Shown in pieces: positions 13,892 through 55,527 of a DNA stretch of 64,000 nucleotides. Location of the stretch: NCBI RefSeq assembly GCF_045037415.1, contig NZ_CP173438.1. One strand, written 5' to 3'. A program made the position numbers and the translations under genes. Every line of letters begins with the position of its first letter. Within the stretch, counting starts at the first letter, position 1. The notes below the pieces were generated by a model that did no database searches, was not told the origin of the DNA, and saw only the letters and a program-made list of their open reading frames with translations. This stretch comes from Escherichia coli (GTDB lineage: Bacteria > Pseudomonadota > Gammaproteobacteria > Enterobacterales > Enterobacteriaceae).

Positions 13892-15469
13892 ATGACGGAA
13901 AACATTCATAAGCATCGCATCCTCATTCTGGACTTCGGTTCCCAGTATACTCAACTGGTTGCGCGCCGCGTGCGTGAACTGGGGGTTTACTGCGAACTGT
14001 GGGCGTGGGATGTGACAGAAGCACAAATTCGTGACTTCAATCCAAGCGGCATTATTCTTTCCGGCGGCCCGGAAAGTACTACTGAAGAAAACAGCCCGCG
14101 TGCGCCGCAGTATGTCTTTGAAGCAGGCGTACCGGTATTCGGCGTTTGCTATGGTATGCAGACCATGGCGATGCAGTTGGGCGGTCACGTTGAGGCTTCT
14201 AATGAACGTGAATTTGGCTACGCGCAGGTTGAAGTCGTAAACGACAGCGCACTGGTTCGCGGTATCGAAGATGCTCTGACCGCAGATGGTAAACCGCTGC
14301 TGGACGTCTGGATGAGCCACGGCGATAAAGTTACCGCTATCCCGTCCGACTTCGTCACCGTAGCCAGCACCGAAAGCTGCCCGTTTGCCATCATGGCCAA
14401 CGAAGAAAAACGCTTCTATGGCGTACAGTTCCACCCGGAAGTGACTCACACCCGCCAGGGTATGCGCATGCTGGAGCGTTTTGTGCGTGATATCTGCCAG
14501 TGTGAAGCCCTGTGGACGCCAGCGAAAATTATCGACGACGCTGTAGCCCGCATCCGCGAGCAGGTAGGCGACGATAAAGTCATCCTCGGCCTCTCTGGTG
14601 GCGTGGATTCCTCCGTAACCGCAATGCTGTTGCACCGCGCTATCGGTAAAAACCTGACTTGCGTATTCGTCGACAACGGCCTGCTGCGTCTCAACGAAGC
14701 AGAGCAGGTTCTGGATATGTTTGGCGATCACTTTGGTCTGAACATTGTTCACGTACCGGCAGAAGATCGCTTCTTGTCAGCGCTGGCTGGCGAAAACGAT
14801 CCGGAAGCAAAACGTAAAATCATCGGGCGCGTTTTCGTTGAAGTATTCGATGAAGAAGCGCTGAAACTGGAAGACGTGAAGTGGCTGGCGCAGGGCACCA
14901 TCTACCCTGACGTTATCGAATCTGCTGCTTCTGCAACCGGTAAAGCACACGTCATCAAATCTCACCACAACGTGGGTGGGCTGCCGAAAGAGATGAAGAT
15001 GGGCCTGGTTGAACCGCTGAAAGAGCTGTTCAAAGACGAAGTGCGTAAGATTGGTCTGGAGCTGGGCCTGCCGTATGACATGTTGTACCGTCACCCGTTC
15101 CCGGGACCAGGCCTTGGCGTTCGTGTTCTGGGGGAAGTGAAGAAAGAGTATTGTGACCTGCTGCGCCGTGCTGACGCCATCTTCATTGAAGAACTGCGTA
15201 AAGCGGACCTGTACGACAAAGTCAGCCAGGCGTTCACCGTCTTCCTGCCAGTACGTTCCGTTGGCGTAATGGGCGATGGTCGTAAGTATGACTGGGTTGT
15301 CTCTCTGCGTGCTGTCGAAACCATCGACTTTATGACCGCACACTGGGCACATCTGCCGTACGATTTCCTCGGTCGAGTTTCCAACCGCATTATCAATGAA
15401 GTGAATGGTATTTCCCGCGTGGTGTATGACATCAGCGGCAAGCCACCAGCAACTATTGAGTGGGAATGA
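13892..15469 (+). CDS. guaA: GMP synthase (glutamine-hydrolysing)
   Basis: 525-aa protein [36 protein letters not shown]..; glutamine amidotransferase plus ATP-pyrophosphatase (SGGVDSSV) domains. The last codons (IEWE-stop) lie within the prophage att core. Confidence 0.95.
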
Positions 15470-15471
15470 TT
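15455..15471. repeat. attL core (17-bp direct repeat) overlapping guaA stop codon
   Basis: Identical 17-mer at 55459-55475. Confidence 0.8.
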
Positions 15472-15517
15472 AACAGCTAACTCATAGCAACTCATTCCTA
15501 TTCAGATACTAATTTAA

Positions 15518-15546
15518 CCCTCTGTTTTTACAGAGGGTTTTTGTTT
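15518..15546 (+). terminator. Rho-independent terminator downstream of guaA (phage-supplied copy)
   Basis: ccctctg-ttttta-cagaggg plus T-run; near-identical hairpin with a different loop at 55502-55527. Confidence 0.7.
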
Positions 15547-15604
15547 TTATGTATTCATTTCTATTCACTCTACACCATATTTTTCGTCGGTACAGGTGAC
15601 GGTA

Positions 15605-15619
15605 TTACCTTAAAGGTAT
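15605..15619. promoter_or_regulatory. Imperfect copy of prophage palindromic motif (TTACC-TTAAA-GGTAT) upstream of int
   Basis: One mismatch to TTACC-N5-GGTAA; 43 bp upstream of int start. Confidence 0.4.
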
Positions 15620-15661
15620 ACTCTCATACCGTCATGAAAATGGTTTCTATACGGGTGAATT

Positions 15662-16918
15662 GTGCTTACCGATACAAAATTAAAAAACCTCAAGCCGCAG
15701 GACAAACTGTACAAGGTCTCCGATCGTGACGGGCTGTATGTAGCTGTGCTTACGTCAGGCACGGTCTCGTTTCGCTATGACTACCGTATCAACGGTCGCC
15801 GCGAAACACTGGTAATCGGGCAGTATGGGCGTGACGGTATCAGCCTGGCAGAAGCGCGAGAAGAACTGATTGCTGCAAAGAAGCTGCTTAAAGCAGGCCA
15901 GTCACCGGCTGCGGCTAAACGTGACGGTATTAAAAAGATTCGTGGTGCCGAGACGTTTGCGGTACATACCGACAGTTATATGAAACACGTCATCCTGGCT
16001 GACAGTACCCGCGCAATGAAGCAGGCGGTGATCGACCGTGACATACTTCCGGTTCTTGGCAACAAAATGATGGCTGAAATTACCACATCAATGGTTCGTG
16101 ATTTGTGTGACCGGATTGTCGAACGCGGTGGTCGGGCAACAGCAGTACAGGCCAGGGAGATCATCAGCAGCGTATACCGTCACGCCAATGACCGTGGTCA
16201 TGGTTTGTTTAATCCTGCGGCTGACATTAAACCTTCGTCTATCGCCATATTTAAACCACGAGAGCGAACACTGACACCAGAAGAAATTGGCCTGTTCTTC
16301 CGCACGCTGGATGCCATTGGTGCTATGGGCACTATGAAAATGGCTTTAAAGCTGGTGCTTATCACCATGGTTCGTAAGGGAGAATTCACCAATGCAACGT
16401 GGGATGAAATAGATTTTAAAAAATGGACATGGACAATTCCTTCAGACCGCATGAAGGGAAGTCGGGCGCACGTTATTTACCTGCCTAAACAGGCACAGGA
16501 TATATTAGTCGGGTTGCAGATGTGCGCTGGTGGAAGTGAATATCTGGTTCCTGGTCGTTACAATTTCCGGAAGCCATTATCTAATGCCGCGCTGAACTCT
16601 CTGATCGACAGAACGGTGAAAATAATAAATGAAGATGGTGAGCATATTCAGGATTTTACTGTACATGATATGCGCCGTACAGCCAGTACATTGTTGCATG
16701 AGGCTGGTTATCCTTCAGACTGGATTGAAAAGGCTCTGGCACACGAGCAGAAAGGTGTGCGCGCCGTATATAACAAAGCGGAATACGCCAGACAGCGCGC
16801 CTACATGTTGCAGCAGTGGGCCGATATGATTGATTCCTGGATTAACGGGGAGCATACGGATCTGATTCCGTTCTCCCCGTCGAAGTTTGAGAAGTGGATG
16901 GAAGACAGTAATAAATAA
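15662..16918 (+). CDS. int: Tyrosine integrase (P4-type N-terminal arm-binding domain)
   Basis: GTG start; MLTDTKLKNLKPQDKLYKVSDRDGLYVAV.. typical of P4-like integrases; C-terminal catalytic region with HxxR and terminal Tyr; adjacent to attL. Confidence 0.9.
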   Translation: MLTDTKLKNLKPQDKLYKVSDRDGLYVAVLTSGTVSFRYDYRINGRRETLVIGQYGRDGISLAEAREELIAAKKLLKAGQSPAAAKRDGIKKIRGAETFAVHTDSYMKHVILADSTRAMKQAVIDRDILPVLGNKMMAEITTSMVRDLCDRIVERGGRATAVQAREIISSVYRHANDRGHGLFNPAADIKPSSIAIFKPRERTLTPEEIGLFFRTLDAIGAMGTMKMALKLVLITMVRKGEFTNATWDEIDFKKWTWTIPSDRMKGSRAHVIYLPKQAQDILVGLQMCAGGSEYLVPGRYNFRKPLSNAALNSLIDRTVKIINEDGEHIQDFTVHDMRRTASTLLHEAGYPSDWIEKALAHEQKGVRAVYNKAEYARQRAYMLQQWADMIDSWINGEHTDLIPFSPSKFEKWMEDSNK

Positions 16919-16920
16919 TT

Positions 16921-17580
16921 CTATCCTTCCTGGACTTTGGTAAGCGTCAGATTTCCGCAGAACACTGCGCCGGTGTCGATGTACATTTGGTTTGCATACA
17001 CCAGTGGGTGATGTGCTGGCGTATGACCGAAGATGAACAAATCGGCACCGGTTATCTCCGAGACAATACCGTCCTGCGCGTCGCTAACCCGCTCACGATT
17101 CCATATCACCATTTCTTCCGGTACTGGCTTATCGAATGCGTATTCGTTGTGCGGGTAGTCTGCGTGGCAGATGACGACCTTCTTATTGCCGGTAACCAGT
17201 TCGATAATCATCGGGAGGTTGGTAACCTTTGGCAGAAGGTATTTGAGTTGCACATCCTGCTCAGAATCAAGTTGGTGCCACCATCCACCGCCGTTTGACA
17301 TCCAATGTCCGAAACTTCCGCCGTTGACCAGTGCATCCAGCATCATCTGCTCATGGTTGCCACGAACAGCTCGGAACCACGGCATAGTAATCAAATCCAG
17401 GCATTCGACGTTTTCAGCGCCGCGGTCAACAAGGTCACCAACGGAAATAAGCAAATCGCGCGCCGGGTCGAATGAAACTTTGTCGAGTTCGTTCATCAGC
17501 AGCGTGTAGCACCCATGCAGATCGCCGACGACGAAGATATTGCACCAGTCAGCGCCATTGATGCGTTGATATAGGTTCAT
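16921..17580 (-). CDS. Ser/Thr protein phosphatase (lambda PPase / PrpA-like metallophosphatase)
   Basis: GDLHG, GDLVDRG and GNHE metallophosphatase motifs; start taken at MNLYQRING to avoid overlap with the upstream gene. Confidence 0.8.
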
Positions 17581-18239
17581 GCTGCACGCTCCCGCCCCTG
17601 GTTGTCTGTTGGTGACAGCGGAGCATTGCTGAATGCATTTGTTAATCCGCCGATATCCAACGCGTATCCAGGGTGTAGTTGCACTGCCGGGTCTTCGCAC
17701 TGATTACCCCAAACATCGAAGCCATGAGACGTCTGGCGGGCGAACAGTTCAATGCGAGAAACATCGCCTAATAATTGCACAAGTTTTTCACGAACGATAT
17801 CTGGCTTTCTTGAATGCTCAAGCCGCGGTGCGGTAAATGACTGAACGATCCCTGCATTAATGCGCGTAGGTAGTTTTCCCTTTACCGCAAACAGGCAATC
17901 TTCACTATTGGCGCGAGTCATGTGTCCCATACCCATAACCAGTTTATCTGGTTGTCGACTACCACATTTTATCCACGTGAAGCCCTTCATCGTCATCAGA
18001 CGGAATCCCCAGGCTTCAACAACTTTTAGTGCTTCGAGTGGTTGTGTTGGCACCCACCACATGGCCAACAGACAGTTTTCATCGGCCAAATCCCACACAG
18101 GAAGGCGGCAGATATCCAGCACACTCATAACCGGATATTTAAAACCGGCACCGCGATTACCATCTGCGGCTTTGTCCCGGTATACCCAGGGTGGATCTGC
18201 ATAGATTAGTGTGTATTTCTTAGTCATAAACCACCCCAC
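17577..18239 (-). CDS. DNA N6-adenine methyltransferase (MT-A70-like)
   Basis: DPPW motif (..[12 protein letters not shown]..) near the N-terminus; overlaps the phosphatase start by 4 nt. Confidence 0.75.
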
Positions 18240-18486
18240 AACATCCTATGCCGCTATAGTCGCCACGGCGAAGGCCGTTACCTTTTGTGATACATTGGTC
18301 CCTGCGAACCGCGATCCTTGCACGTTCAACATCACCAGAAGCAACATCCATACACTGAAGCCAAAGGTGAGCGGCAATGCGGAATTGCCCTTTTTTCTCT
18401 CTTTCAATCGCGCGTTTTTCGATCTCTATCGCCGCAGGAGTAACGGCGACAATCTTTGACGGACTGCGCATTGAAACCTTATTCAT
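18220..18486 (-). CDS. Small hypothetical prophage protein (possibly ANR-type regulator)
   Basis: ORF only; start uncertain (M at 18519, 18486 or 18471). Confidence 0.3.
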   Translation of the reverse strand: MNKVSMRSPSKIVAVTPAAIEIEKRAIEREKKGQFRIAAHLWLQCMDVASGDVERARIAVRRDQCITKGNGLRRGDYSGIGCCGVVYD

Positions 18487-18628
18487 GTGATATTTTTCAA
18501 GTCGGCTTAACTTTCTCACTTAATCCAACCCTCTCTGAAAATTAATGCCAGCAGATAAAGCCATGCTGAAACAGAGGCCAGGAATAAGTACCATCCTGAC
18601 CATTTGCTCCAGTGCCTTAGCAGCGCAC

Positions 18629-18877
18629 TCATGCAGCGTTGCTCACGGGACGATATACACGTTGCTGAACAGGAGGCTTTTTACCCTGGAACTCTGCCGG
18701 GCTTGCTGCCTGACGTTCATCAAGCCAACGCTCAACTTCATCACGGTTCCATGCGCAGCGTTTATCGGTGATATACCAGCGTTTAGGAAATTCCCCTGCG
18801 CGCTCCATACGGTCGATAGTGCTCCATGACAGTGGCACCACCGCCAGGAGTTCTTTCTTACCTAATGCACCTTTCAT
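18629..18877 (-). CDS. AlpA-family phage regulatory protein / excisionase-like HTH
   Basis: 82 aa; ..LSWSTIDRMERAGEFPKRWYITDKRCAWNRDEVERWL.. resembles AlpA/Xis-type winged helix; located in the int-proximal early operon. Confidence 0.6.
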   Translation of the reverse strand: MKGALGKKELLAVVPLSWSTIDRMERAGEFPKRWYITDKRCAWNRDEVERWLDERQAASPAEFQGKKPPVQQRVYRPVSNAA

Positions 18878-18926
18878 GAATACCTCTCTTGGTTGCAGTG
18901 CGGCGCACGTGGCGCCGCGGTGGTGG

Positions 18927-19868
18927 TTACATAGATGTTTCGTTTAATTCTTCCCGACGAACGCTGTAAACGTCGGTTGCTTTTGCCAGCAGTTCGTCAT
19001 CATCTGAAAGTTTTTGTGCAATGTATTTGTAAGCCTTATCCAGTTCGGAGACAGTGCTGTAATTCATCGCTGCGCTGGTAAAGGCCATCAGCATTTCTTC
19101 TGGATCACGGCTGTCCGATTTACGCGTTTGCTCATCAGGCTTTTTCGCTGGTTTAGCGTTGATCAGACTGTTCATTCCCGCAGCAGTGGTCGTTTGCGGA
19201 GTAATGTCTCGCTCAACGCGCGGTGCCGTTTCCTGTAATTCGTCTGGGGTGTAGACGCCCATGATTACGTCAGGACAGTGCAGGCGAGACCAGCGTTTTG
19301 TCGCAAGGTATGCGAGTTGTTGTTTCGGATCACTGGCCCAAAGTGTGGAGTTTCTTACCTGTGCTTGAGACAGCATTAACTCAAGCACTCGAGGTTGATC
19401 CTCGCCCTTCATGGTTGCCCATACGCGAACACCGCAGCCTTCTTCGTCTTTTAGAGTCCAGCCTGGTGCGATATATGGATTGCCGTTTTTGGATGTTTTC
19501 TCAACAAACTTACCGATCACGCGTTCCCACGGCCCGAACCACTCGTAGTTGATGCGATCTTTTGTTGGCGACATCGTTGAGATAACTGCGTTTACTAATT
19601 GGGCTTCATAACCTAGCGTGCCGTTCACAACATGGGTTTTCTGAGCCACGGCAAACGGGTTCATTCCCCACTGCGCAGCCTGCATTGCCACGGCCATGCA
19701 ATCAGCTGGTTTCCCGGCGAGGTGCGCCGGTACCGTTACGCGGCTTTGCGCCATTACCTCGGCGAATTTCATCAGTTGGTTCAAGCCGTCTGGGCTGAAA
19801 ATAGTTGCAGCAGTTCCAGCGATTGCTGTGTCTACTGGTGCGTTGATGTTTGCGATGTCGTTGCTCAT
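18927..19868 (-). CDS. RecT-family single-strand annealing recombinase
   Basis: RecT-like sequence; start at MSNDIANI overlapping the stop of the upstream exonuclease gene. Confidence 0.75.
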   Translation of the reverse strand: MSNDIANINAPVDTAIAGTAATIFSPDGLNQLMKFAEVMAQSRVTVPAHLAGKPADCMAVAMQAAQWGMNPFAVAQKTHVVNGTLGYEAQLVNAVISTMSPTKDRINYEWFGPWERVIGKFVEKTSKNGNPYIAPGWTLKDEEGCGVRVWATMKGEDQPRVLELMLSQAQVRNSTLWASDPKQQLAYLATKRWSRLHCPDVIMGVYTPDELQETAPRVERDITPQTTTAAGMNSLINAKPAKKPDEQTRKSDSRDPEEMLMAFTSAAMNYSTVSELDKAYKYIAQKLSDDDELLAKATDVYSVRREELNETSM

Positions 19869-20686
19869 ATGTACATATCCTGTTTGCGTGCCCACTCAGG
19901 GCGTTTAATGATTTCCACACCGCCCCATTCATCATTGATGCGGCATTCGTGATAGGTATTCAGATCCCGGCGGAACAGAGCGTGCCCGGCATCGACATCC
20001 TGCGCATCCAGCTCGAACACGCGTACCGGATACCGACCACAATCAATGCTTTCGCTCACGGCAAGAAAGAAAAAACCATGCGGCTGACCAGTAACCCTCA
20101 TTGCGCCTTCGCGGTACATTGCGTCCTGCACGTGGTAGCGGAATTCCTCGATGTGGCGTGCAAAACGGTCCATATCTGCAACCTTTTTCACGTCGACGAT
20201 CACGTTGTGCTCGTTCAGCCATTTGTCTGGACGAATTCGGCACAACTCCCCCGTCTCTTCATCGTTCCAGTACATTGATGCTTCGCAGTAACCAGGTGCT
20301 TCCAGCATCCAGCGTGCCGCCGGGTGAGCCATTGCGCTATCACGCATCAGCTCCAGTTTCCGCCACTGCTCGGCATCAAGTACCGTAATCCCCATATCCG
20401 CCACATCACGAAGAAATTCCTCTTCGTCAGCTTTACCTTGTTTCGTCCGACGATCGAATTTCGGTGAAACAATGAAGCGTTTGTCGAACTCTCCAGGCTC
20501 CAGAAGCAGACAGTGCAATGCGGTTCCCATATCCAGTGCAGACTTTTTCTCTTCGTCTTCTGGTGCTGCCTGAACCCATTTAAGAAGCGCCGGATTCTTG
20601 GCAACCATGTCCAGTTGCGACTTACTCACGCCGTCACCGGCGTGGTAGTCTTCGTTGCTGATGTCGAAATAAATTCCCGGTTTCAT
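19865..20686 (-). CDS. PD-(D/E)XK exonuclease (phage recombination exonuclease, YqaJ/RecE-like)
   Basis: 273 aa immediately upstream of RecT in the same operon; conserved D..E.K-type nuclease signature region (..VIVDVKKV..). Confidence 0.6.
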   Translation of the reverse strand: MKPGIYFDISNEDYHAGDGVSKSQLDMVAKNPALLKWVQAAPEDEEKKSALDMGTALHCLLLEPGEFDKRFIVSPKFDRRTKQGKADEEEFLRDVADMGITVLDAEQWRKLELMRDSAMAHPAARWMLEAPGYCEASMYWNDEETGELCRIRPDKWLNEHNVIVDVKKVADMDRFARHIEEFRYHVQDAMYREGAMRVTGQPHGFFFLAVSESIDCGRYPVRVFELDAQDVDAGHALFRRDLNTYHECRINDEWGGVEIIKRPEWARKQDMYI

Positions 20687-20982
20687 GCCGCGTCCCTCTG
20701 CCCATCAAGCTGATCAGCCAGATCCCAGCGGGCGATAATTGCCATTGCCTCGCGCCGGTAGGCATCCATTAGTTCTTCGAACTCAGGGCTGTCTTTAGCG
20801 GCCTCCAGTACTTCCTGGCGAACGCCTTTAACTGTTACAACGTCGAAAGTTGATGCCAGTTGATGAAGCCGGATACTCTCAATCAGTTCAACTTGTCGGT
20901 CATATAGCTGTTCTGACAGACGGTAGTCCTTGTCGAATGCCAGCATGATTTTTTGAAGATTTTTCTGCTGATTAACGTTCAT
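20683..20982 (-). CDS. Hypothetical early-left protein
   Basis: ORF MNVNQQKNLQKIMLAF..; tightly coupled to flanking genes. Confidence 0.4.
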   Translation of the reverse strand: MNVNQQKNLQKIMLAFDKDYRLSEQLYDRQVELIESIRLHQLASTFDVVTVKGVRQEVLEAAKDSPEFEELMDAYRREAMAIIARWDLADQLDGQRDAA

Positions 20983-20984
20983 TA

Positions 20985-21137
20985 TCAGCCCTCCCATATC
21001 TCGTTATCGTTGGCCACATCGCGAGCTTCTTTGCTGACGAAAGCCCACTTAATGCCTTCCTGTAAGGTGCGGAACTTCCAGCTCATGAATCCGCATGCAG
21101 TAACGCAGTACCAACCGTTGATGATTTTCCACTGCAT
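20985..21137 (-). CDS. Small hypothetical protein (50 aa), first gene of the leftward early operon
   Basis: Translated by hand: MQWKIINGWYCVTACGFMSWKFRTLQEGIKWAFVSKEARDVANDNEIWEG; SD gaggt 9 nt upstream; below ORF-track size cutoff. Confidence 0.4.
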   Translation of the reverse strand: MQWKIINGWYCVTACGFMSWKFRTLQEGIKWAFVSKEARDVANDNEIWEG

Positions 21138-21156
21138 AACTTGTTACCTCGGTCTG

Positions 21157-21171
21157 TTACCGTTGAGGTAA
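21157..21171. promoter_or_regulatory. Palindromic operator-like motif TTACC-GTTGA-GGTAA at the leftward early promoter
   Basis: Perfect copy; abuts a -10-like element of a minus-strand promoter whose -35 TTGACA is at 21194-21199. Confidence 0.6.
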
Positions 21172-21218
21172 TAATTATGCGTATATGGTTTGATGTCAAT
21201 AGATATGAGTTAAAAAAA

Positions 21219-21233
21219 TTACCCGTTAGGTAA
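21219..21233. promoter_or_regulatory. Palindromic operator-like motif TTACC-CGTTA-GGTAA
   Basis: Perfect copy 62 bp from the copy at 21157; paired arrangement. Confidence 0.6.
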
Positions 21234-21244
21234 TCGAATAGGCA

Positions 21245-21270
21245 ATAAAAAAGCCGCCATAAGGCGGCTT
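21245..21270 (-). terminator. Rho-independent terminator after repressor gene
   Basis: On minus strand aagccgcc-ttat-ggcggctt followed by TTTTTT. Confidence 0.6.
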
Positions 21271-21290
21271 ACTTACTGAAAAATATGGTT

Positions 21291-21875
21291 TTATTGTTTG
21301 TTTTTTTCGTTCTGGTTGATGACAAATTCAATGTAACTTTCGATCTTTGCTTTCTCGGTTTCGGGTAACAATGCGTAGCGTGAGCGGTCATAGTTGATAG
21401 TCGCAGGGTCGTGCGGGTGAATCAGTAGTTCATATCCGTGACGCCCGAATGCGGATGCAACATTCTCCAGGGTGGAAATGGAAACGCTGACCTCATTGTT
21501 TAACAGGCGGCTGATTGTCACCTGGGCGACGCCGGATGCGCGGTGAAGTTTTCCCTGAGTTGAAAGGTCGCGGCTTTCACTCATCCAGCGTTCCAGGTTG
21601 TGAGCTGCCAGCTGACCAATGTCGCTTGGGCCGACAGGCTGAAAACCTTCCTGAGAAAGCGAGCGATCGATATCAAGCCAGTTACGGGGTTTATTGGCGG
21701 CAGCTTCAATTTTTCGCGCAACCTGGTCGCCGATAACCTTCTTGCCAAGAGCCCAGCGGTTTACCAGATTTGCCTGAGTTCCAAGTTTTTCTGCCATCCG
21801 CGTCTGAACACCATTGAATTCACGGTCGATCAAGTCGTTGAGATTTTGCCTGCGGACGTCCTGGATACTTTTCAT
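21291..21875 (-). CDS. Prophage repressor-like regulator with two HTH modules and no peptidase S24 domain
   Basis: 194 aa; two HTH-like segments (..TRMAEKLGTQANLVNRW.. and ..ASGVAQVTISRLLNNE..); divergent from the Cro-like gene; no Ser/Lys autocleavage domain. Confidence 0.6.
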   Translation of the reverse strand: MKSIQDVRRQNLNDLIDREFNGVQTRMAEKLGTQANLVNRWALGKKVIGDQVARKIEAAANKPRNWLDIDRSLSQEGFQPVGPSDIGQLAAHNLERWMSESRDLSTQGKLHRASGVAQVTISRLLNNEVSVSISTLENVASAFGRHGYELLIHPHDPATINYDRSRYALLPETEKAKIESYIEFVINQNEKNKQ

Positions 21876-21930
21876 TTTCTGGAAAATCGCCTCATATATG
21901 AATCAGTAGATGATTCAATTTAAAGCAATA

Positions 21931-21945
21931 TTACCCAACAGGTAA
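21931..21945. promoter_or_regulatory. Palindromic operator-like motif TTACC-CAACA-GGTAA in the repressor/cro intergenic region
   Basis: Perfect copy. Confidence 0.6.
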
Positions 21946-21951
21946 ATGCAC

Positions 21952-21990
21952 CCCATAGGTAACTATCCTTGATTTTTGTTACCTTATGGG
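21952..21990. promoter_or_regulatory. Second inverted repeat in the immunity region (cccataggtaac-N14-gttaccttatggg) overlapping the putative rightward promoter -35
   Basis: Half-sites GGTAAC/GTTACC in outward orientation; candidate rightward promoter -35 TTGTTA 21976-21981 and -10 TATTAT 21999-22004. Confidence 0.45.
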
Positions 21991-22029
21991 TGAATATTTA
22001 TTATCTGAAATAAATATCAGGCAATAGCT

Positions 22030-22260: not shown

Positions 22261-22282
22261 TATCTGGCAACAACCCTCTGTA

Positions 22283-22304
22283 GACCGCCATCCGGCGGTC
22301 TTTT
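22283..22304 (+). terminator. Rho-independent terminator after cro-like gene (tR1-like)
   Basis: gaccgcc-atcc-ggcggtc followed by TTTT. Confidence 0.55.
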
Positions 22305-22315
22305 CATATCTATTC

Positions 22316-22330
22316 GTACCTCAAAGGTAA
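22316..22330. promoter_or_regulatory. Imperfect palindromic motif GTACC-TCAAA-GGTAA
   Basis: One mismatch to TTACC-N5-GGTAA; just downstream of the tR1-like terminator. Confidence 0.4.
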
Positions 22331-45230: not shown

Positions 45231-45235
45231 ATTAA

Positions 45236-47710: not shown

Positions 47711-47721
47711 AAGGAGATATG

Positions 47722-47844
47722 ATGGTTCAAATAACTTTTATTGTACTAATATGTGCAGCGTTTTTATGCTATTCATACATTTTGATAAAAATGGGTTTCA
47801 ATTGGAATCTCTGTTGCGTGCAGCGGCATGGTTCGGCTTTGTAG
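47722..47844 (+). CDS. Small hydrophobic peptide (40 aa), uncertain
   Basis: SD aaggag 6 nt upstream of ATG 47722; MVQITFIVLICAAFLCYSYILIKMGFNWNLCCVQRHGSAL. The ORF-track alternative 47694-47882 is in another frame. Confidence 0.3.
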   Translation: MVQITFIVLICAAFLCYSYILIKMGFNWNLCCVQRHGSAL

Positions 47845-47929
47845 TATTAGGAATTGTATTGTTCGGAAGAATAATAAAATAACTAGTTAATTTGTGGATT
47901 GGTGCTGTTTTTCCATGATAGGGGTAATT

Positions 47930-48310
47930 ATGAGAAAAGTATTTTTGATTTTTGGATTTATGCTTCTCGTTGGATGCCAGTCAGCTGCACAGTTTGAAAG
48001 AAATATGCTTACGTGGCGCGGGCAGAGTATAGACGCAATGGTTCAGCAGTGGGGGTATCCTCAGGGAGAGCTTACATCTCCAGATGGAAACAGAGTGTAT
48101 GTTTACTCAAGCTCTGGTAGTTATAACGTACCACAAACCACAACGTATAATACTACGTCTAATCTAATTGGTAATACTATATATTCAAACACATACGCAA
48201 CAACTGATGGCGGTTATACACTCCATTTCAGTTGCTCTGTTTACGTTGAGTTTGGTGCTGATAAGATTATTAAAAATGTTACATGGCGCGGTAATAATTG
48301 CGTTGCGTGA
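47930..48310 (+). CDS. Lipoprotein (accessory gene)
   Basis: SD aggggtaa; lipoprotein signal peptide MRKVFLIFGFMLLVGC with lipobox LVGC; Ser/Thr/Tyr/Asn-rich mature part. Confidence 0.6.
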   Translation: MRKVFLIFGFMLLVGCQSAAQFERNMLTWRGQSIDAMVQQWGYPQGELTSPDGNRVYVYSSSGSYNVPQTTTYNTTSNLIGNTIYSNTYATTDGGYTLHFSCSVYVEFGADKIIKNVTWRGNNCVA

Positions 48311-48341
48311 CATGTCACAGGCCGCTTTCGCGGCCTTGTTT

Positions 48342-48503
48342 TTAACGAATGCCACCGCCACCCGGGCGGGAATCCGCAGAACGCCCACCGCAGCGGGAGC
48401 CGTCAGCAGCAGTGTCGCTGTCGTGCTGACAACGACCGGCAAAGGCCTGAGTTGAAGCTACCAGAGACAACAAAACGAACAGTGCAGCAAATGCTTTTTT
48501 CAT
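48342..48503 (-). CDS. Small secreted peptide candidate (53 aa), low confidence
   Basis: MKKAFAALFVLLSLVASTQAFA signal-peptide-like start followed by a Gly/Arg/Asp-rich tail; lies in a short GC-rich segment. Confidence 0.25.
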   Translation of the reverse strand: MKKAFAALFVLLSLVASTQAFAGRCQHDSDTAADGSRCGGRSADSRPGGGGIR

Positions 48504-48574
48504 TGTGAAATTTCCATCTATAAGCCACCTCAATGTGGCGTCAATGAGTGTAGCACTGACTTTTGTTTCGTCCA

Positions 48575-48597
48575 CAAAAAAGCCCGCGCTGCGGGCT
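48575..48597 (-). terminator. Rho-independent terminator after the 210-aa unknown gene
   Basis: On minus strand agcccgc-agc-gcgggct followed by TTTTTT. Confidence 0.6.
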
Positions 48598-48601
48598 TCT
48601 A

Positions 48602-49234
48602 TTAATGCAGTTTATCTTTGCTTATAACCAGTAGTCTGTGGGTATGCACATCTTTATCACTGCCCCAACAGAAATCAGCCCACTGGCTATAGAAATCATC
48701 CCATGATGTCATGAAGCTAAGAGGTCTATCTTCTTCAGAGCCATCTGAAACGTATACATTATATCCTGGGGTGTTTATAGCCCAAGAAATCATTCTTTCC
48801 CAGAATCTTCTCCCATCGATTGTTTGTTGCTCATCAGATACAACGATCGCATATTGCTCTAGGAAGAACTGAAAAAAAATCTGAGGCAAACCATGAACAG
48901 CACGGTCATGAATAACATTAGGCGTACGCCATACCATGATCTGCGTACATGTTCTTTTGGCTTCGACGATATCTTCCCGAAAGATTAACTTAACCGCATA
49001 CACCGTTTCTGGAGTATCGCTGGTAGTAATCATTCTGTAATGATCGCCATTACAAGATTTTACAAGGCGATAACCATAAGGTGTTGTGAATCCCGGAAGA
49101 ACGAAATCAACCACACCTTTCGCTAAGTAGCTTTCGGTGTGACTAGTGTTCTTCTCAGACATGTTCAGTTTTCTATCGAAATCTGCTTCTGGGATAATGT
49201 ATGGCATCGCTTTTCTTGTTGTATTTGTTCTCAT
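48602..49234 (-). CDS. Hypothetical protein (210 aa) of unknown function in the accessory locus
   Basis: SD gggagga before ATG; own promoter region with palindromic motif and own terminator; no recognisable family. Confidence 0.5.
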   Translation of the reverse strand: MRTNTTRKAMPYIIPEADFDRKLNMSEKNTSHTESYLAKGVVDFVLPGFTTPYGYRLVKSCNGDHYRMITTSDTPETVYAVKLIFREDIVEAKRTCTQIMVWRTPNVIHDRAVHGLPQIFFQFFLEQYAIVVSDEQQTIDGRRFWERMISWAINTPGYNVYVSDGSEEDRPLSFMTSWDDFYSQWADFCWGSDKDVHTHRLLVISKDKLH

Positions 49235-49293
49235 TTCGTCCTCCCATGTTTGGCTACAGGACGCGTTTTGAAGGGAAGATTAAAAATGCTTTC

Positions 49294-49308
49294 TTACCCT
49301 TGAGGTAA
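49294..49308. promoter_or_regulatory. Palindromic operator-like motif TTACC-CTTGA-GGTAA
   Basis: Perfect copy 60 bp upstream of the 210-aa gene start. Confidence 0.55.
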
Positions 49309-49380
49309 TAGTACGCTATTCACCCCCAGTCTGCAATCTGTACAGAATTATTTAAAGGCACATCCCTGTGCCGCCGCCCG

Positions 49381-50037
49381 TCAGAAGAACCCTGCCTTGT
49401 CGTTGATGTACTCCGCGTGCGTCTGGATATCACGCAGGCATTTGCTCACACCAACGATGTAGCAGAACATGGTGGTCAGCTCCGCCGCCGCGCCCGATAC
49501 GTCGTGCCCGTCGTCCTGTAACTGGTTCAGCAGATTCATCAGCAGTGAGTTCTCCGTCAGGCCGAGAACACCAGACGGCGAGTGAATCAGGCTGCGGTAG
49601 CCGGGCTTCAGTGGGGCACTGTATTCTTTTTTGTCTTCCAGCTTGATCGCCTCCATAATGGCGGGCATGAAGCCTGACAAGACCTTCTCCACTTTTGTTT
49701 CTTGTTGTCTTAAACGTTTCTCGCATTCAATGAAGTAGCGTCGCACCTGGCGACCTTTTTCGTTACGCTCGACCATCGCCAGCTCTTTGGCTGTATCAAG
49801 GGTGAGGTGGTACTCTTTGCGGTTGTGGCCGCCTCTACCAGATGTTTGCTTTCCCAAATTGGAAAGCAAAATATAGTCTTGATTTTCAATGAATTCGTAT
49901 TCTGATATGCGATTTGTAATCCATGCTGCAAACACCTTTTTAACACCTAAAAAAGCGTGCAGATCGCGGGCATTACAAAGTAGGGCTGTTTCGTTAGATA
50001 TAGTGCCGTTGAATACGGGGATGAGTTGAGCGTTCAT
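49381..50037 (-). CDS. Antirepressor (AntA-like N-terminal domain plus KilAC-like C-terminal domain)
   Basis: N-terminus ..[36 protein letters not shown].. matches the AntA/AntB pattern as recalled; C-terminal about 80 aa homologous to the downstream 85-aa protein. Confidence 0.65.
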
Positions 50038-50310
50038 GATGGCGTCTCCACTTAGCGAATTACATCACCACCGCTGAGAACCAATCAGATGGTGGTGAAC
50101 TGAACGGAGTTGGTCTTACCGGCCTAAGTGGTACCGGCGTCCTTTCGGACCCCCATTCAGCCCACCATAATTCTGGCATGACTGTGCTATACGCATAAAA
50201 AAACCACGTCTGGCGTGGTATGCGCCACTTAGTAATCCGGGAGAACCAATCCCGGCACTGGATTTTGCCAGTGCCCGATTACTATGGCACAAGAGGAGTG
50301 CGATGTAAAT

Positions 50311-50325
50311 TTACCGCAAAGGTAA
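50311..50325. promoter_or_regulatory. Palindromic operator-like motif TTACC-GCAAA-GGTAA nested inside a larger palindrome
   Basis: Perfect copy flanked by ggagtgc (50294-50300) and gcactcc (50332-50338). Confidence 0.55.
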
Positions 50326-50356
50326 ATATAAGCACTCCATTTGGTAATTTCAAACC

Positions 50357-50614
50357 TTATCTGGTTTGTTTTCGTAATTGTTCGGCACAATAGTCGAGAT
50401 GTGTTTGCAGATCCTGCATAGACATCTGTGAGCTGGTGACGTAGTTAATCAGTGCAGTCAGTTCGGCAAGTGGGCCATCGACATTAAATCCATCCTTATC
50501 GAGATCCCGGAGTAATTTCATCAAGTGCGATCCCTCCACCAGTGACCTGACGCCTCCCGGCGTGTGAATCCTTTCGGTAAATCCGTCTTCCAGTGGATAG
50601 TGATACTGCTGCAT
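50357..50614 (-). CDS. Small antirepressor-like protein (KilAC-like domain only, 85 aa)
   Basis: MQQYHYPLEDGF..; about 45 percent identical to the C-terminal domain of the 218-aa antirepressor (shared ..IH(S/T)P.GV..L.E.S.LM.LL..L..DG..V.G..AELT..Y..DxQTH..Y); LexA box 22 bp upstream. Confidence 0.6.
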   Translation of the reverse strand: MQQYHYPLEDGFTERIHTPGGVRSLVEGSHLMKLLRDLDKDGFNVDGPLAELTALINYVTSSQMSMQDLQTHLDYCAEQLRKQTR

Positions 50615-50635
50615 CTTATCTTCTCCATGCAATAA

Positions 50636-50651
50636 CTGTATATTTATACAG
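50636..50651. promoter_or_regulatory. LexA (SOS) box CTGT-N8-ACAG
   Basis: aaCTGTATATTTATACAGta, near-perfect match to the E. coli LexA consensus; overlaps a TATAAA -10-like element of the minus-strand promoter. Confidence 0.75.
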
Positions 50652-50690
50652 TAGCAAATAATTTGTTTGCTATCCAGCACGTTTTGCAAA

Positions 50691-50705
50691 TTACCTGAAA
50701 GGTAA
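50691..50705. promoter_or_regulatory. Palindromic operator-like motif TTACC-TGAAA-GGTAA between antirepressor-like gene and tailspike
   Basis: Perfect copy in the divergent intergenic region. Confidence 0.55.
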
Positions 50706-50809
50706 TATCTATTCGTATTTACAGCCTTTCTATCCATATGTGGTTTTCCAGGTAATAGAATAACCAGATATGCGGCGCAACGGGTGCTGCGACTATCTGG
50801 AGATTTAAC

Positions 50810-53461
50810 ATGACGGTTTCAACCGAAGTTGACCACAACGAATACACCGGTAACGGAGCTACGACATCATTTCCGTATACCTTCCGTATTTTCAAAAAAT
50901 CCGACCTGGTTGTTCAGGTGTCTGACCTGAACGGGAACGTAACAGAATTGGTTCTGGATACTGACTACACAGTAACCAATGCTGGAGGATATAATGGCGG
51001 TAATGTAATTCTGTCGAAGGCGTTGGCTAACGGTTATCATATTTCTATATCACGAGAGCTCCCGGTTACGCAGGATACTGATTTGCGTAATCAGGGTAAG
51101 TTCTTCGCTGAGGTACATGAAGACGCGTTCGATAAACTGACAATGCTTATTCAAAAGTGTTTTTCATGGATGAGGTTAGCACTTATAAAACCAAGCATTC
51201 TGGCTAACTATTATGATGCAAAAAATAATAAGATATCAAATCTAGCAAATGCCACTGACAGAAACGATGCTGTCAATAAAGGTTATGTTGATGATCTTTT
51301 TACTGGAGGTGTAACGCCTACATCTAACAGCGCTAAAAACGATATTTTTACAAATCACCAAAGAAAGATTGTAGCTACGATGCCGCTTCTTTTTCCTGAA
51401 TATGATGCGATTATGGCTGCTAACCCGTCAGCAACTTATATGTATCCTCAAGGATTCTGCGTTAGCGAAGATTTGATATACATCACTTATCCATTTGAGC
51501 CTAAACAGACGAATAATGTCGTCGCAGTATTTAACATATCTGGTATTTATCAAGGTTATTTCTATGTTCAGGCTGGCGGCCCAGGCTTCGCTGCTGAAGG
51601 AATCGTGGTTACGTCAGACTATGGCCCCAAAAAAATGTTTGTTGGTCACACAAACGGAATACTGCGTGAATTTAATATGGAGGGGGCATTATACGGAAGC
51701 AATCTGCCTCTTGTACAAAACCATGATGTTGGATTATTCAACCAGTTCAGCTACAGAAGAGGTATATGGCTCGTTGAGCAGAATGCGCCAGAAGTAGGAC
51801 AGAAAATCACAAGAACTGTACTTGCAGTGTTCGACAGTGGTTTCAATCGCCTGTCAACTATAACGCTGCCGTTACATGATGTTGGGTATGTAACTAAAAG
51901 CACCTCACCTTATGCGCCTTATTTCAACAAGCGTCAGGGTATTGCGGTAGGTGATAACTACTTTGTCTGCGGCTATGGCGGCTTCATAGCTGATGGGGCA
52001 GGAAGCGCAGGATATAACGAATATCAGGGCAGCAAAGTTTTTAACCCTGACGGTACAAAGCGAACTGAATCAATGCTTCATCCTCAGGCCATGATGGATT
52101 TAATGAAAGCCGCAGGATTGAACGTCACTCGCATAGAAAATGAAGGCGTTTGTGTTTCTCAGGATGGAAAATCCATTTATTCACTTTACATTCATCAGGA
52201 AAGAACTGGCTCTGAACCTTACAATTCAGGTTTGGTTATTTTCGAAGATTTCTCCACTGATAAAGATGCTATCGATTTTACACCTGCATCCAGGCTTTAC
52301 CGCGGATTTGATATCGATCACGCGAGCATTGGGGTATATCCCCGTAGTGCGAAGGGGATTGTTAACCCTGTAGATGGTACGTTGTTCACTAACATGACTG
52401 AAATTCTTCGCTATATGCAGGAGATGAGTCAGAAGGCATTTAATTTTTACACAGGGACTGTCAGCATTGCTGATATATCTGGCGTGGCAATCCCTTCCAG
52501 CACATATGTTGAAATACTGAATGCGAATAATCAGACTTTTATAGTCAACTATTATTCATCTGATAGTGGCATTAGTTATTTGGTTGCAACTAATCCTTCT
52601 GGTGACTTTGTATTTGTGCGCCAGCGACCGGCACAGTGGGCATCTAACTTAACCATTCAGCAAAACGCAGATCCTGATACAAACCAATTAAACCGCATCA
52701 CTGCATCATCATATGCCGGTGCAACTACAAACTCTCAGAAAATATTGGTCCTTGACCAGCAGGCTACAGCTAGCGCAAATAGCTTGGTATTGGGCGGTAG
52801 TTCTTCTGTGTTTAGGTCTGCCACCACGGTGGATATTGCATGCAACAGCGACCCGACAGCATTGGGAGGAACCATACGCTGGCGGTTTTATGATACAGGT
52901 CTTCGCCCGTTTGCTGACAATACCTATAATTTTGGTCAGGCATCGTTTCGTATTAAAGACGCCTACTTTGCAAATGCCCCAACCGTTTCATCAGATGCCA
53001 CGCTGAAAACCAATCCCGAGGCAATATCAGATTTAAGTGAAATGCTTTCTTCTGATAGAGACAGCATTCTTGATGCCTGGGGCGATATTTCTGTTGTGGC
53101 GTATCGATGGCTCGACGCTATATCCATGAAGGGCGATGGTGCCAGATGGCATTTTGGCGTCATGGCTCAGCAGGTAAGGGATGTATTCTTGGCGCACGGA
53201 ATTGATGGAACCAGATTTGGCCTTCTTTGCTATGACGAGTGGGATGATATTTTTGAGCCGGTAATCGCGACTAAAGAGATTACCGATACGTCTGGTGAGT
53301 TGGTCACCGTCGAATATGACACCGGAGAACAGAGGCTGGTTAAAAAAGCGGGTAGTTCATGGGGTATACGGCCTGACCAGTGCGCTTGGCTTGAGGCTGC
53401 ATATCAGCGCCGTCGATGCGATCGTATTGAAGAGCGACTCGAACTATTGGAATCAAAATAA
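50810..53461 (+). CDS. Tailspike / tail fiber with C-terminal intramolecular chaperone (peptidase S74-like) domain
   Basis: 883 aa; conserved phage fiber N-terminal anchor (..YTGNGATTSFPYTFRIF..); C-terminal ..DAWGDISVVAYRWLDAI..GDGARWHFGVMAQQVRDVF.. matches auto-cleaving chaperone domains of tailspikes as recalled. Confidence 0.8.
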   Translation: MTVSTEVDHNEYTGNGATTSFPYTFRIFKKSDLVVQVSDLNGNVTELVLDTDYTVTNAGGYNGGNVILSKALANGYHISISRELPVTQDTDLRNQGKFFAEVHEDAFDKLTMLIQKCFSWMRLALIKPSILANYYDAKNNKISNLANATDRNDAVNKGYVDDLFTGGVTPTSNSAKNDIFTNHQRKIVATMPLLFPEYDAIMAANPSATYMYPQGFCVSEDLIYITYPFEPKQTNNVVAVFNISGIYQGYFYVQAGGPGFAAEGIVVTSDYGPKKMFVGHTNGILREFNMEGALYGSNLPLVQNHDVGLFNQFSYRRGIWLVEQNAPEVGQKITRTVLAVFDSGFNRLSTITLPLHDVGYVTKSTSPYAPYFNKRQGIAVGDNYFVCGYGGFIADGAGSAGYNEYQGSKVFNPDGTKRTESMLHPQAMMDLMKAAGLNVTRIENEGVCVSQDGKSIYSLYIHQERTGSEPYNSGLVIFEDFSTDKDAIDFTPASRLYRGFDIDHASIGVYPRSAKGIVNPVDGTLFTNMTEILRYMQEMSQKAFNFYTGTVSIADISGVAIPSSTYVEILNANNQTFIVNYYSSDSGISYLVATNPSGDFVFVRQRPAQWASNLTIQQNADPDTNQLNRITASSYAGATTNSQKILVLDQQATASANSLVLGGSSSVFRSATTVDIACNSDPTALGGTIRWRFYDTGLRPFADNTYNFGQASFRIKDAYFANAPTVSSDATLKTNPEAISDLSEMLSSDRDSILDAWGDISVVAYRWLDAISMKGDGARWHFGVMAQQVRDVFLAHGIDGTRFGLLCYDEWDDIFEPVIATKEITDTSGELVTVEYDTGEQRLVKKAGSSWGIRPDQCAWLEAAYQRRRCDRIEERLELLESK

Positions 53462-53558
53462 GACCAAATTTAGGTAATTATTATCCGTAAATGGTTTATT
53501 GTGTATGATGGACCTCATCTTCTAAGGGGGTTTTTATGCACAATAAACGGTGGTTACC

Positions 53559-53960
53559 ATGAATGGCACGGTTACGGCGGATTCACTGAATCAAGGGTTA
53601 AGCTTGGGTGCGCTGGCCTCTGTCGTCTACGGCGTTCCGCCAGAGGTGGCTCTCGGTGCTCTGGCTGGTGCGGTAATATTTGTTACCTCTGCTGTAGAGT
53701 ATCCTGTTCGTCGTCGTGTACTCTTGTCGATACTCAGCTTTCTTTGTGGTCTTCTCTTTTACAAACCAACAACATCAATTCTTATCGGAATAGCCAGCAT
53801 GATACCTACCATCACGCAGGACTCTTTCGAGAAAGGGATTGTTTTCTCTGCTGGCGCATTCGTGTCAGCAATTGTCGCAGTGCGAATTGGTATATGGCTC
53901 TATCACCGTTCTGATAATCCACGCCAGTTAATTCCTGGGAGAAAAGGCGATGGTAACTAA
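53559..53960 (+). CDS. Holin-like membrane protein
   Basis: Multiple predicted TM segments; first gene of the lysis cassette; short leader ORF upstream. Confidence 0.45.
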   Translation: MNGTVTADSLNQGLSLGALASVVYGVPPEVALGALAGAVIFVTSAVEYPVRRRVLLSILSFLCGLLFYKPTTSILIGIASMIPTITQDSFEKGIVFSAGAFVSAIVAVRIGIWLYHRSDNPRQLIPGRKGDGN

Positions 53961-54258
53961 TGAGCTTGTTTTGCTTATCACCAATGCAATTATTTGTACT
54001 GGCATAGCAATTCGCGTTGTCACATTCCGGCGTAACGGCTCTCAACATCGAAGATGGGGAGGGTGGCTTGCTTATTTCCTTATTGTTGCTGCGGCCAGTA
54101 TTCCTGTTCGTGTCGCCTATGCAATCTGGTTACGTACGCCAATGGCTGTGGATTTATCTGAGGTCATTATCAACGCTGTCATGCTTGCCGCGGTTATTAA
54201 AACACGCGGTAACGTTGTTCAGATTTTCAAAACATCGAGGTCTAAACATGGAGATTAA
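53950..54258 (+). CDS. Holin-like membrane protein 2
   Basis: 102 aa with 2-3 hydrophobic segments and charged C-terminus; immediately upstream of endolysin. Confidence 0.5.
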
Positions 54259-54877
54259 ACAATTCCAGCGAGCTGCTGGTATTAGCGAGGCTCTGGCCGC
54301 ACGCTGGTTCTCGCATATAACTTCTGCGATGAAAGAGTTTGGTATCAGAAAACCCGAAGATCAGGCAATGTTTATTGCTCAGGTCGGGCATGAGTCTGGT
54401 GGCTTCACCAGGTTGCAGGAGAATTTCAATTACAGCGTCACCGGACTGGCTAACTTCGTTCGTGCCGGTCGTCTTACTCAGGGACAGGCTAACGCATTGG
54501 GTCGTCGTGCAGGCGAGCCACCATTGCCACCTGAGCGCCAGCGTGCGATTGCCAATCTGGTGTACAGCAAACGCATGGGGAACAATGCCTCTGGTGATGG
54601 CTGGAATTACCGTGGCCGCGGACTTATCCAGATTACCGGTTTGAATAACTATCGTGATTGCGGAAACGGCCTGAAAGTGGACCTGCTGGAGAATCCTGAA
54701 CTGTTGGCGCAGGACGAATACGCGGCTCGTAGCGCGGCGTGGTTCTTCTCCAGCAAAGGTTGCATGAAGTATACCGGCGATATTGCACGTGTAACTCTGA
54801 TTATCAATGGTGGCAGGAATGGCATCGACGACCGGCGCGTGCGGTACATCACTGCCAGTAAGGTGCTGGCGGTATGA
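54248..54877 (+). CDS. Endolysin, glycoside hydrolase family 19 (chitinase-like)
   Basis: ..[28 protein letters not shown].. GH19 signature; start at MEIKQFQ (the ORF-track 54017 start is an upstream extension). Confidence 0.85.
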
Positions 54878-55371
54878 TCTGGGCATTCGCAAAAGCATAC
54901 CGGAAACAGTTGGTTGTCATGGCGATGCTTGCTGTTCTGGTCATATCAGGAGTTGTTGCCTGGAATGTGCATGGCAGCCGCCAGTACGATGCCGGGTATG
55001 CTCAGGCGAAGGAAGATCAGAAACAGGCTGATGATAAGTTAAGGTCACAGCGTGAGCAGGAGAAAACACAAATTGAACGTGAAGCACAATCCCGTATCGA
55101 TGCGGCGCGTGCTGATGCTGAGTATGCTAATTCCGCTGCTGACAGCATGCGCGCCGAGCTTGACAAAACCAGGCGGCTCGCCGAACACTATACCGGATCT
55201 TTCCCCCCTGGCACGCCAGCCAGCAAGGTCATCGGTGTGCTCGCCGACATGCTTGAAGAAAGCAACCGAGTTTACAACGCAACAGCAGCTGAGGCTGAAA
55301 AGTATCGTATCGCAGGGGAATTCTGCGAGCAGCAATACGATTCACTGAAGAAGCAAAAATCGTGGCACTGA
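54874..55371 (+). CDS. Spanin inner-membrane subunit (Rz-like)
   Basis: N-terminal TM helix followed by charged coiled-coil region; follows endolysin. Confidence 0.65.
55100..55348 (+). CDS. Spanin outer-membrane lipoprotein subunit (Rz1-like), embedded in the +1 frame of Rz
   Basis: Lipobox LLTAC, Pro-rich mature region; start uncertain (55100 or 55115). Confidence 0.5.
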   Translation: MRRVLMLSMLIPLLTACAPSLTKPGGSPNTIPDLSPLARQPARSSVCSPTCLKKATEFTTQQQLRLKSIVSQGNSASSNTIH

Positions 55372-55458
55372 TTTCCGGTGACGGTATATAAAACGGTACG
55401 GTGAAAATCAGGTTACAGAAAGTTGTTACCAGTCAATTGGTTATGCATGCCGTAAATA

Positions 55459-55475
55459 ATTGAGTGGGAATGATT
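55459..55475. repeat. attR core (17-bp direct repeat)
   Basis: Identical to 15455-15471; followed by host-type guaA-distal sequence and terminator. Confidence 0.8.
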
Positions 55476-55501
55476 TGACCCTGCACTATGAATGAACAAA
55501 A

Positions 55502-55527
55502 CCCTCTGTTACTACAGAGGGTTTTTT
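55502..55527 (+). terminator. Rho-independent terminator (native guaA terminator displaced to attR)
   Basis: ccctctg-ttacta-cagaggg plus TTTTTT. Confidence 0.65.

Follow-up and report, generated by a model that had tools for sequence, protein, structure and literature searches.

A Uetakevirus prophage at the 3′ end of guaA in Escherichia coli carries a terminator-like hairpin resembling that of its host gene

Integration into the 3′ end of a gene, with reconstitution of that gene by the incoming element, is known for phage 21 and e14 at icd, for P4, P22 and HP1 at tRNA genes and for genomic islands at ssrA (Campbell; Williams). In the DNA considered here, a 64,000-nucleotide stretch of Escherichia coli contig NZ_CP173438.1 (hereafter the window), a 40-kb prophage lies directly behind guaA, and its closest described relatives are the phages ΦV10, ε15 and vB_EcoP_ZX5. 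The sequence ‘attgagtgggaatgatt’ has been reported as the attP/attB core of ZX5, the same sequence being the attP of ΦV10 and ε15; integration of ZX5 at the guaA 3′ end was shown by PCR and Sanger sequencing and left host growth unaffected (PMC9782041). Insertion of a ΦV10-like phage in guaA has likewise been reported in enterohaemorrhagic E. coli O103:H25 (PMC3293862). The GenBank records of ΦV10 (26781–26813) and ε15 (26795–26824) both list a hairpin that follows the core as a putative rho-independent terminator, and in the latter record it is surrounded by annotated sites for integration host factor (IHF), RNase III and integrase binding. The word ‘terminator’ has no occurrence in the ZX5 paper, where the likeness of this hairpin to the host terminator is unmentioned (PMC9782041). 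The window prophage shares with these three phages the 17-bp core, the Rz–attP–int layout, the hairpin, the arm-type motifs and the integrase family, and shows no essential difference from them: it is another lysogen of the same kind. The site and the annotated terminator are thus real and already known, and what we add are small comparative points on the homology of the terminator and on a wider pattern among islands at the same site.

The initial annotation of the window had proposed that a 17-bp repeat containing the guaA stop codon marks both ends of a phage integrated into the last codons of that gene. The 17-mer ATTGAGTGGGAATGATT was found in exactly two copies in the window, at 15455–15471 and 55459–55475, both on the + strand, with no further match at up to two mismatches (0 expected from 100 shuffles), and the TGA of guaA (15467–15469) does lie within the left copy. 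That these repeats are the true att core is borne out by their identity with the experimentally verified one (PMC9782041). We reconstructed attB by joining 15055–15471 to 55476–55900, that is, the outer flanks plus one core; the product was 100% identical over 842 nt to unoccupied guaA–yfgI junctions, as expected if the repeats mark the ends of an insertion. The contiguous guaA–yfgI site is present in 4567 of 5425 complete E. coli genomes, and the attL junction of the window recurs in 567 of the same 5425 (∼10%). The reciprocal reconstruction, in which attP is assembled from the right phage end, the core and the left phage end, matched an uninterrupted stretch in the genomes of free phages: ΦV10, vB_EcoP_ZX5, O157 typing phages 9 and 10, Enterobacter phage Tyrion, the Salmonella phages 65FD, PAT1, SPN1S and ε15, and a Klebsiella phage. 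The sequence after the core at attL, which had been claimed to be phage-derived, is therefore joined through the core to the right phage end in free phages, and the hairpin it contains is phage-borne. The repeats accordingly bracket a 40-kb Uetakevirus (ΦV10/ε15-like) prophage at the 3′ end of guaA.

The reading frame of guaA survives this insertion, again as proposed. The 525-aa open reading frame (ORF) is intact, its product has the same RefSeq accession (WP_000138282.1) in an empty-site strain and in a lysogen, and in E. coli the insertion alters zero bases of guaA, leaving the target ORF unchanged as in other gene-reconstituting systems. The fit is less exact in other hosts, where attB ends in GAATAA (Salmonella) or GAGTAA (Klebsiella) and where the segment common to attP and attB shortens from 17 bp in E. 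coli to 13 bp in Salmonella and 11 bp in Klebsiella. Empty Salmonella sites, whose identity was confirmed via protein names, read ATTGAGTGGGAATAA / ...ACCATTGAGTGGGAATAAGCC..., and a Klebsiella lysogen reads ...GGGAATGATT / ...ACGATTGAGTGGGAATGATTAACGG... at attL and ATTGAGTGGGAGTAA / ...AAATAATTGAGTGGGAGTAATCCCC... at attR. In Salmonella and Klebsiella lysogens the guaA stop codon is supplied by the phage (TAA to TGA), as is, synonymously, the last Glu codon in Klebsiella; the changes to guaA on insertion in these genera are therefore only synonymous or confined to the stop codon. Since attP shares nothing more with the Klebsiella attB, strand exchange must, as judged from these alignments, take place within ATTGAGTGGGA.

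The prophage had further been said to supply a near-copy of the native guaA terminator at attL, with the same 7-bp stem and a different loop, the native hairpin being displaced 40 kb to attR. The pattern CCCTCTGTNNNNACAGAGGG (that is, CCCTCTGT and ACAGAGGG separated by four nucleotides of any kind) occurs in exactly two copies in the window, with 0 expected: at 15518–15537 with the loop TTTT and at 55502–55521 with the loop TACT. The shared stem and differing loop thus stand, although the common stem is 8 bp rather than 7, or 10–12 bp counting flanking A–U pairs, and the second hairpin (55498–55527) is indeed the native one, being present in empty sites. A spacer of 48 nt (15470–15517) separates the guaA TGA from the phage hairpin, and one of 28 nt separates the TGA of the second core from the native hairpin. 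Predicted folding energies are −15.9 kcal/mol for the phage hairpin and −17.3 kcal/mol for the native one, and the corresponding 3′ untranslated segments are more stable than shuffled sequences (z=−4.0 and −5.1, respectively). Both hairpins are followed by a T-run, so that each of the intervals 15516–15548 and 55498–55527 presents a GC stem-loop and U-run 3′ of a stop codon, the sequence signature of an intrinsic terminator. The native hairpin was unreported by a simple terminator scanner, because greedy extension of its stem to 12 bp through the flanking A/T runs uses up the T-run and leaves too few T's in the tail window; folding resolved this. In the − strand reading, UUAAAUUAG, not a U-run, comes after the phage hairpin and UUUUGUUC after the native one; the native hairpin may be bidirectional, also serving the convergent yfgI. 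Scans of both junctions against Rfam gave no family at gathering score, with sub-threshold chance matches at attL and none at attR. After integration, the phage hairpin lies behind guaA and ahead of int, and the native hairpin lies 3′ of the phage Rz gene. The idea of a replacement terminator therefore holds in so far as a phage-borne, terminator-like hairpin occupies attL, termination itself being a reading of the sequence only.

The stem CCCTCTGT/ACAGAGGG is native 3′ of guaA in four genera, Escherichia, Klebsiella, Salmonella and Cronobacter, and a shortened variant of the native hairpin occurs in Citrobacter. These enterobacterial sites were gathered indirectly, via prophage flanks and neighbouring-gene look-ups; a genome scan with the end of guaA, in which IEWE-stop is widely conserved, listed mostly non-enterobacterial matches, and a look-up by the Rz gene of phage Tyrion matched Tyrion alone and gave no native Enterobacter site. 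The native hairpin starts 28 nt after the stop codon in E. coli (loop TACT) and in K. pneumoniae (loop GTTT), 45 nt after it in Cronobacter (loop TTAT) and 48 nt after it in Salmonella, where the loop is TTTT and the 3′ arm is GCAGAGGG or ACAGAGGG. It is this Salmonella version that the phage hairpin matches best, the TTTT loop, the flanks and the 48-nt distance being alike. Over a 40-nt block, phage and Salmonella sequences agree at 33–36 positions, as do phages with one another at 33–37, against 28–30 for phage and E. coli, and the prophage copy in Citrobacter werkmanii is identical to some Salmonella sites over AACCCTCTGTTTTTACAGAGGGTTTTTATTTAT at the same 48-nt offset. From these alignments we conclude that the phage hairpin is homologous to the enterobacterial guaA terminator and most like its Salmonella form. 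Most likely, host DNA from the 3′ flank entered attP, by capture or by copying, and was then retained under selection; it would have arrived either through capture or through patch-wise recombination within a lysogen. The alignments do not demonstrate uptake of host DNA as a single contiguous segment, as only the core and the hairpin block match and the similarity of the spacer between them is not significant.

Comparison of 16 Uetakevirus attP or attL right arms from six host genera indicated which features of the hairpin are conserved. It starts exactly 48 nt after the stop codon in all 16 and has the loop TTTT in 15, while the ∼14 nt directly 5′ of it vary freely among the same sequences. 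In an alignment of phage and host hairpins (19 sequences), all 190 of 190 stem cells pair. The only variation in the stem is the change of U–A to U·G, found at three positions in nine sequences from several lineages, and these changes keep pairing only in the + strand RNA. Conserved pairing and this strand bias favour a + strand terminator, short of proof.

A second family of insertions at the end of guaA appeared among the matches listed, in Providencia, E. albertii, Enterobacter, Lelliottia, Cronobacter, K. michiganensis, Stutzerimonas, Pseudomonas, Chitinibacter, Sheuella, Collimonas, Novacetimonas and others. Where the integrase of these insertions is intact, it is 51–54% identical to that of the window prophage. 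The sequence after the core consists of TGGCA-type repeats and then a GCCCGC/GCGGGC-type hairpin with a T-run, and in most of these islands the GC stem starts 48–49 nt after the guaA stop, in the same alignment columns as the phage hairpin. Here 99.3% of stem cells pair, and compensatory changes occur in five of the eight base pairs, a level reached by 0 of 500 shuffles. Islands with the GCCCGC hairpin are present in 121 E. coli chromosomes. GIsul2 is a genomic island that integrates at GAGTGGGA in the guaA 3′ end, and the paper describing it makes no mention of a terminator (PMC9376610). GIsul2 and the other guaA islands share with the window prophage this target octamer in the same codons, and the islands seen here also share a related integrase and a hairpin with T-run 48–49 nt after the stop; they differ in their hairpin sequence, in their TGGCA arm repeats and in being islands rather than phages. 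Because the island attL and int gave no megablast match in the plasmid collection, we do not call them GIsul2, and their identity with it is unconfirmed. A core, ∼48 nt and then a hairpin with T-run looks, on this comparison, like a shared design of guaA-targeting elements in this integrase clade. Only tentatively would we go further and suggest that a terminator hairpin at this fixed distance is a conserved, selected attP module across the clade, in podophages and islands from Enterobacteriaceae to Pseudomonas and acetic-acid bacteria, in which Uetakevirus adopted a Salmonella-type terminator for the slot, and that such a general ‘terminator-swap’ design might let elements sit behind a highly expressed essential operon with neither disturbance nor read-through. 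Other elements were seen at the same site in Salmonella, one with Abi_C and a BsuBI/PstI-type restriction enzyme and another with an IS110 transposase and an antitoxin. In one 6.65-Mb genome the Uetakevirus attR core is followed by DNA bearing insertion sequences, not by yfgI, a pattern suggestive of elements arrayed in tandem behind guaA.

We consider it highly likely that the window holds a ΦV10/ε15-type prophage whose site-specific insertion at the guaA attB swapped two equivalent terminators. In the free phage the order is Rz (the end of the late operon), P arm, core, 48 nt, hairpin, P′ arm site and int; in the host it is guaA, core, 28 nt, terminator and yfgI. On this account the P4-type tyrosine integrase recombined phage attP with the known attB at the guaA 3′ end, and because both partners carry an equivalent putative intrinsic terminator just right of the core, recombination would exchange them. 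Transcripts of guaBA would then end at the phage hairpin before the co-oriented int, and phage late/lysis transcripts would end at the native hairpin before the convergent yfgI. The phage hairpin would thereby keep the 3′ end of guaA normal and shield int and the prophage from read-through of a strongly expressed operon. Once the phage is circular, this hairpin would lie between Rz and int and so insulate int from late transcription; its service to the phage is probably no smaller than its service to guaA. In the lysogen itself, the prophage has inserted site-specifically at the known attB, guaA is intact and the sequences to the right of the core have been exchanged.

Several observations weigh against this account or limit it. 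The 48-nt spacer of the phage is not significantly similar to that of Salmonella (16–18 of 48 positions, P about 0.1–0.3). The set of phage and host hairpins contains no compensatory double changes, its support coming from conservation and wobble-only changes rather than covariation, and termination at either hairpin, shielding of int and benefit to guaA are all things we infer from sequence. The hairpin might, for example, have been selected only for the needs of the phage, ending the late/lysis operon in the circle and silencing int, in which case any service to guaA would be incidental and the host likeness would have no functional meaning. The position of the hairpin between Rz and the co-oriented int in free phages fits this, as does its annotation by the depositors of ΦV10 and ε15 as a phage terminator without reference to guaA, and the different hairpin carried at the same place by related islands implies that a host-like sequence is not required. 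We regard this explanation as possible but doubtful, since it leaves unexplained why the loop, the flanks and the 48-nt distance so nearly match those of the Salmonella terminator; nor does it exclude the terminator exchange, with which it is compatible, as one RNA hairpin could do both jobs.

A further point against the proposed exchange is that the hairpin is part of a functional attP, with the core on one side and the P′ arm-type site on the other, and is overlapped by the IHF site annotated in ε15, so that a role at the level of DNA is possible. It would then be primarily a spacer, bend, cruciform or protein site holding the intasome at a fixed distance rather than a terminator, consistent with a distance from the core that is fixed in all Uetakeviruses and nearly the same in islands whose integrases are only 51–54% identical. 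All three stem substitutions, however, are A to G opposite T and would give C·A mismatches on the other strand and in a cruciform, the T-run of the + strand is always 3′ of the hairpin, and the covariation of the island hairpins, with double changes in five of eight pairs, argues against a sequence-specific protein site, making this explanation improbable. The direction of borrowing could also be reversed, the native enterobacterial terminator being a fossil attL, left behind as a P′ arm when an ancient element that targeted guaA lost its body, and the phages of today carrying the original version. Elements of this integrase clade carry a hairpin ∼48 nt after the stop in many phyla, and the native Salmonella hairpin, also at 48 nt, has phage-like flanks. 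Yet the flanks in E. coli, Klebsiella, Salmonella and Cronobacter look orthologous to one another, with an (A/C)ATGAA(T/C) motif before the hairpin, and differ by indels that give spacers of 28, 28, 48 and 45 nt; no arm-type motifs are evident in them, and the Salmonella spacer lacks significant similarity to that of the phage. We therefore think a fossil attL very improbable. Coincidence or convergence between two GC-rich terminators, whose stems are short and compositionally biased, is hardly credible when the 16 specified bases of the stem occur nowhere else in 64 kb (0 expected) and identity extends beyond it, to the whole of AACCCTCTGTTTTTACAGAGGGTTTTTATTTAT in the Salmonella and C. werkmanii comparison above. 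These last three explanations are each less likely than the exchange of equivalent terminators.

The prophage body was compared with isolated Uetakeviruses through its first 24.5 kb (15472–40000), which is 97% identical over 76–83% of its length to vB_EcoP_PAS61, phiv142-3, ZX5 and TL-2011b. Together with this similarity, the published core, the rejoining flanks and a tyrosine integrase with arm-type sites were all found, as expected of a Uetakevirus at guaA. The element looks complete from its gene content, encoding a P4-type integrase, recombination and replication genes, terminase, portal, capsid, large internal/tail proteins, tailspike, holins, endolysin and Rz; its features are collected in Table 1. 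The lysis cassette comprises the last genes of the late operon and now reads toward attR. The putative arm-type integrase binding motif has 10 matches against 0.8 expected; near-copies lie in the 5′ part of int at 15830, 15920 and 16174 (− strand), and the integrase binding sites of the ε15 record read GTGACGGTAT, the same motif. A scan for sigma-70-like promoters gave no match in the interval from the hairpin to int, nor near attR. Direct repeats of CTATTCA (15498–15504 and 15561–15567) flank the phage hairpin and are kept in nearly all 16 Uetakevirus right arms; they may be binding sites for a protein such as Int, IHF or Xis. A tRNA-Arg gene (anticodon UCU; 31221–31297, − strand) lies between terminase and portal, on the opposite strand to both, and is also annotated in a related prophage, in strain Ecol_AZ162. 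A reverse-strand block of low GC content (48600–50740; 0.44–0.46) separates the tail genes from the tailspike and encodes an AntA-type antirepressor (49381–50037) and two ORFs without Pfam match, an accessory region that varies among related prophages. Outside the prophage, upstream of guaBA and adjoining xseA, a 2693-aa ORF (2693–10774, + strand) with nine BIg21/InvE_AD repeat pairs encodes a giant invasin/intimin-like adhesin; similar proteins occupy the same place in Citrobacter.

Table 1. Features of the guaA–prophage–yfgI region, in window coordinates.
Feature	Position	Strand	Basis or remark
guaA (GMP synthase, 525 aa)	13892..15469	+	ORF list; RefSeq annotation of identical DNA; last 5 codons and stop in att core
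attL core ATTGAGTGGGAATGATT	15455..15471	+	I-E-W-E-stop plus TT; equals published ZX5/ΦV10/ε15 attP/attB core
Prophage body, Uetakevirus (ΦV10/ε15-like)	15472..55458		39,987 bp between cores
P′ arm spacer, core to hairpin	15472..15515	+	conserved blocks including CTATTCA 15498–15504; IHF and RNase III sites annotated in ε15
Phage hairpin AACCCTCTGT-TTTT-ACAGAGGGTT then TTTGTTTTT	15516..15548	+	putative intrinsic terminator: terminator scan, folding, ΦV10/ε15 annotation
P′ arm-type integrase binding motif GGTGACGGTAT (putative)	15595..15605	+	motif search; ε15 annotation
int, P4-type tyrosine integrase	15662..16918	+	Pfam Arm-DNA-bind_3, Phage_int_M and Phage_integrase; PGAP annotation of identical DNA; co-oriented with guaA
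Lysis cassette: two holins, GH19 endolysin, Rz/DUF2514 (54874–55371)	53550..55371	+	Pfam; ΦV10 annotation
P arm-type integrase binding motif GGTGACGGTAT (putative)	55377..55387	+	motif search; ε15 annotation
attR core	55459..55475	+	second exact copy of 17-mer
Native guaA terminator AAAACCCTCTGT-TACT-ACAGAGGGTTTT TT (predicted)	55498..55527	+	folding; present in empty sites; between convergent guaA and yfgI
yfgI (DUF5384)	55566..56105	−	first host gene right of prophage

In duplicating the 3′ end of its target within attP and leaving the gene intact, the window prophage resembles the gene-reconstituting systems at icd, tRNA genes and ssrA. It differs from them in that the coding duplicate is tiny (11–17 bp) and in that a second conserved piece, the putative terminator, lies beyond 48 nt of unrelated phage sequence. 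The sib element of phage lambda, which acts in retroregulation, is located 3′ of int, and integration parts the two. The hairpin is comparable to sib as an RNA structure next to attP whose transcriptional context shifts on integration, and the ε15 record also lists RNase III sites; unlike sib, it precedes int and remains joined to it after integration, and it is the transcription unit in front that is replaced, Rz giving way to guaA. Neither the homology of the terminator nor the island-wide hairpin pattern was found in the literature searched, the original ε15 and ΦV10 papers lying outside that search.

For annotation, the analysis delimits a common prophage and shows guaA to be undamaged, which matters little in itself. 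Its comparative value is modest and lies in the indication that attP duplicates the terminator of the target gene as well as its last codons. If transcript mapping were to bear this out, the guaA prophages would be a clear example of integrative elements that insulate themselves from a strongly transcribed host operon without perturbing it, and the arrangement would provide a useful rule by which the boundaries of att sites in protein-gene targets could be predicted.

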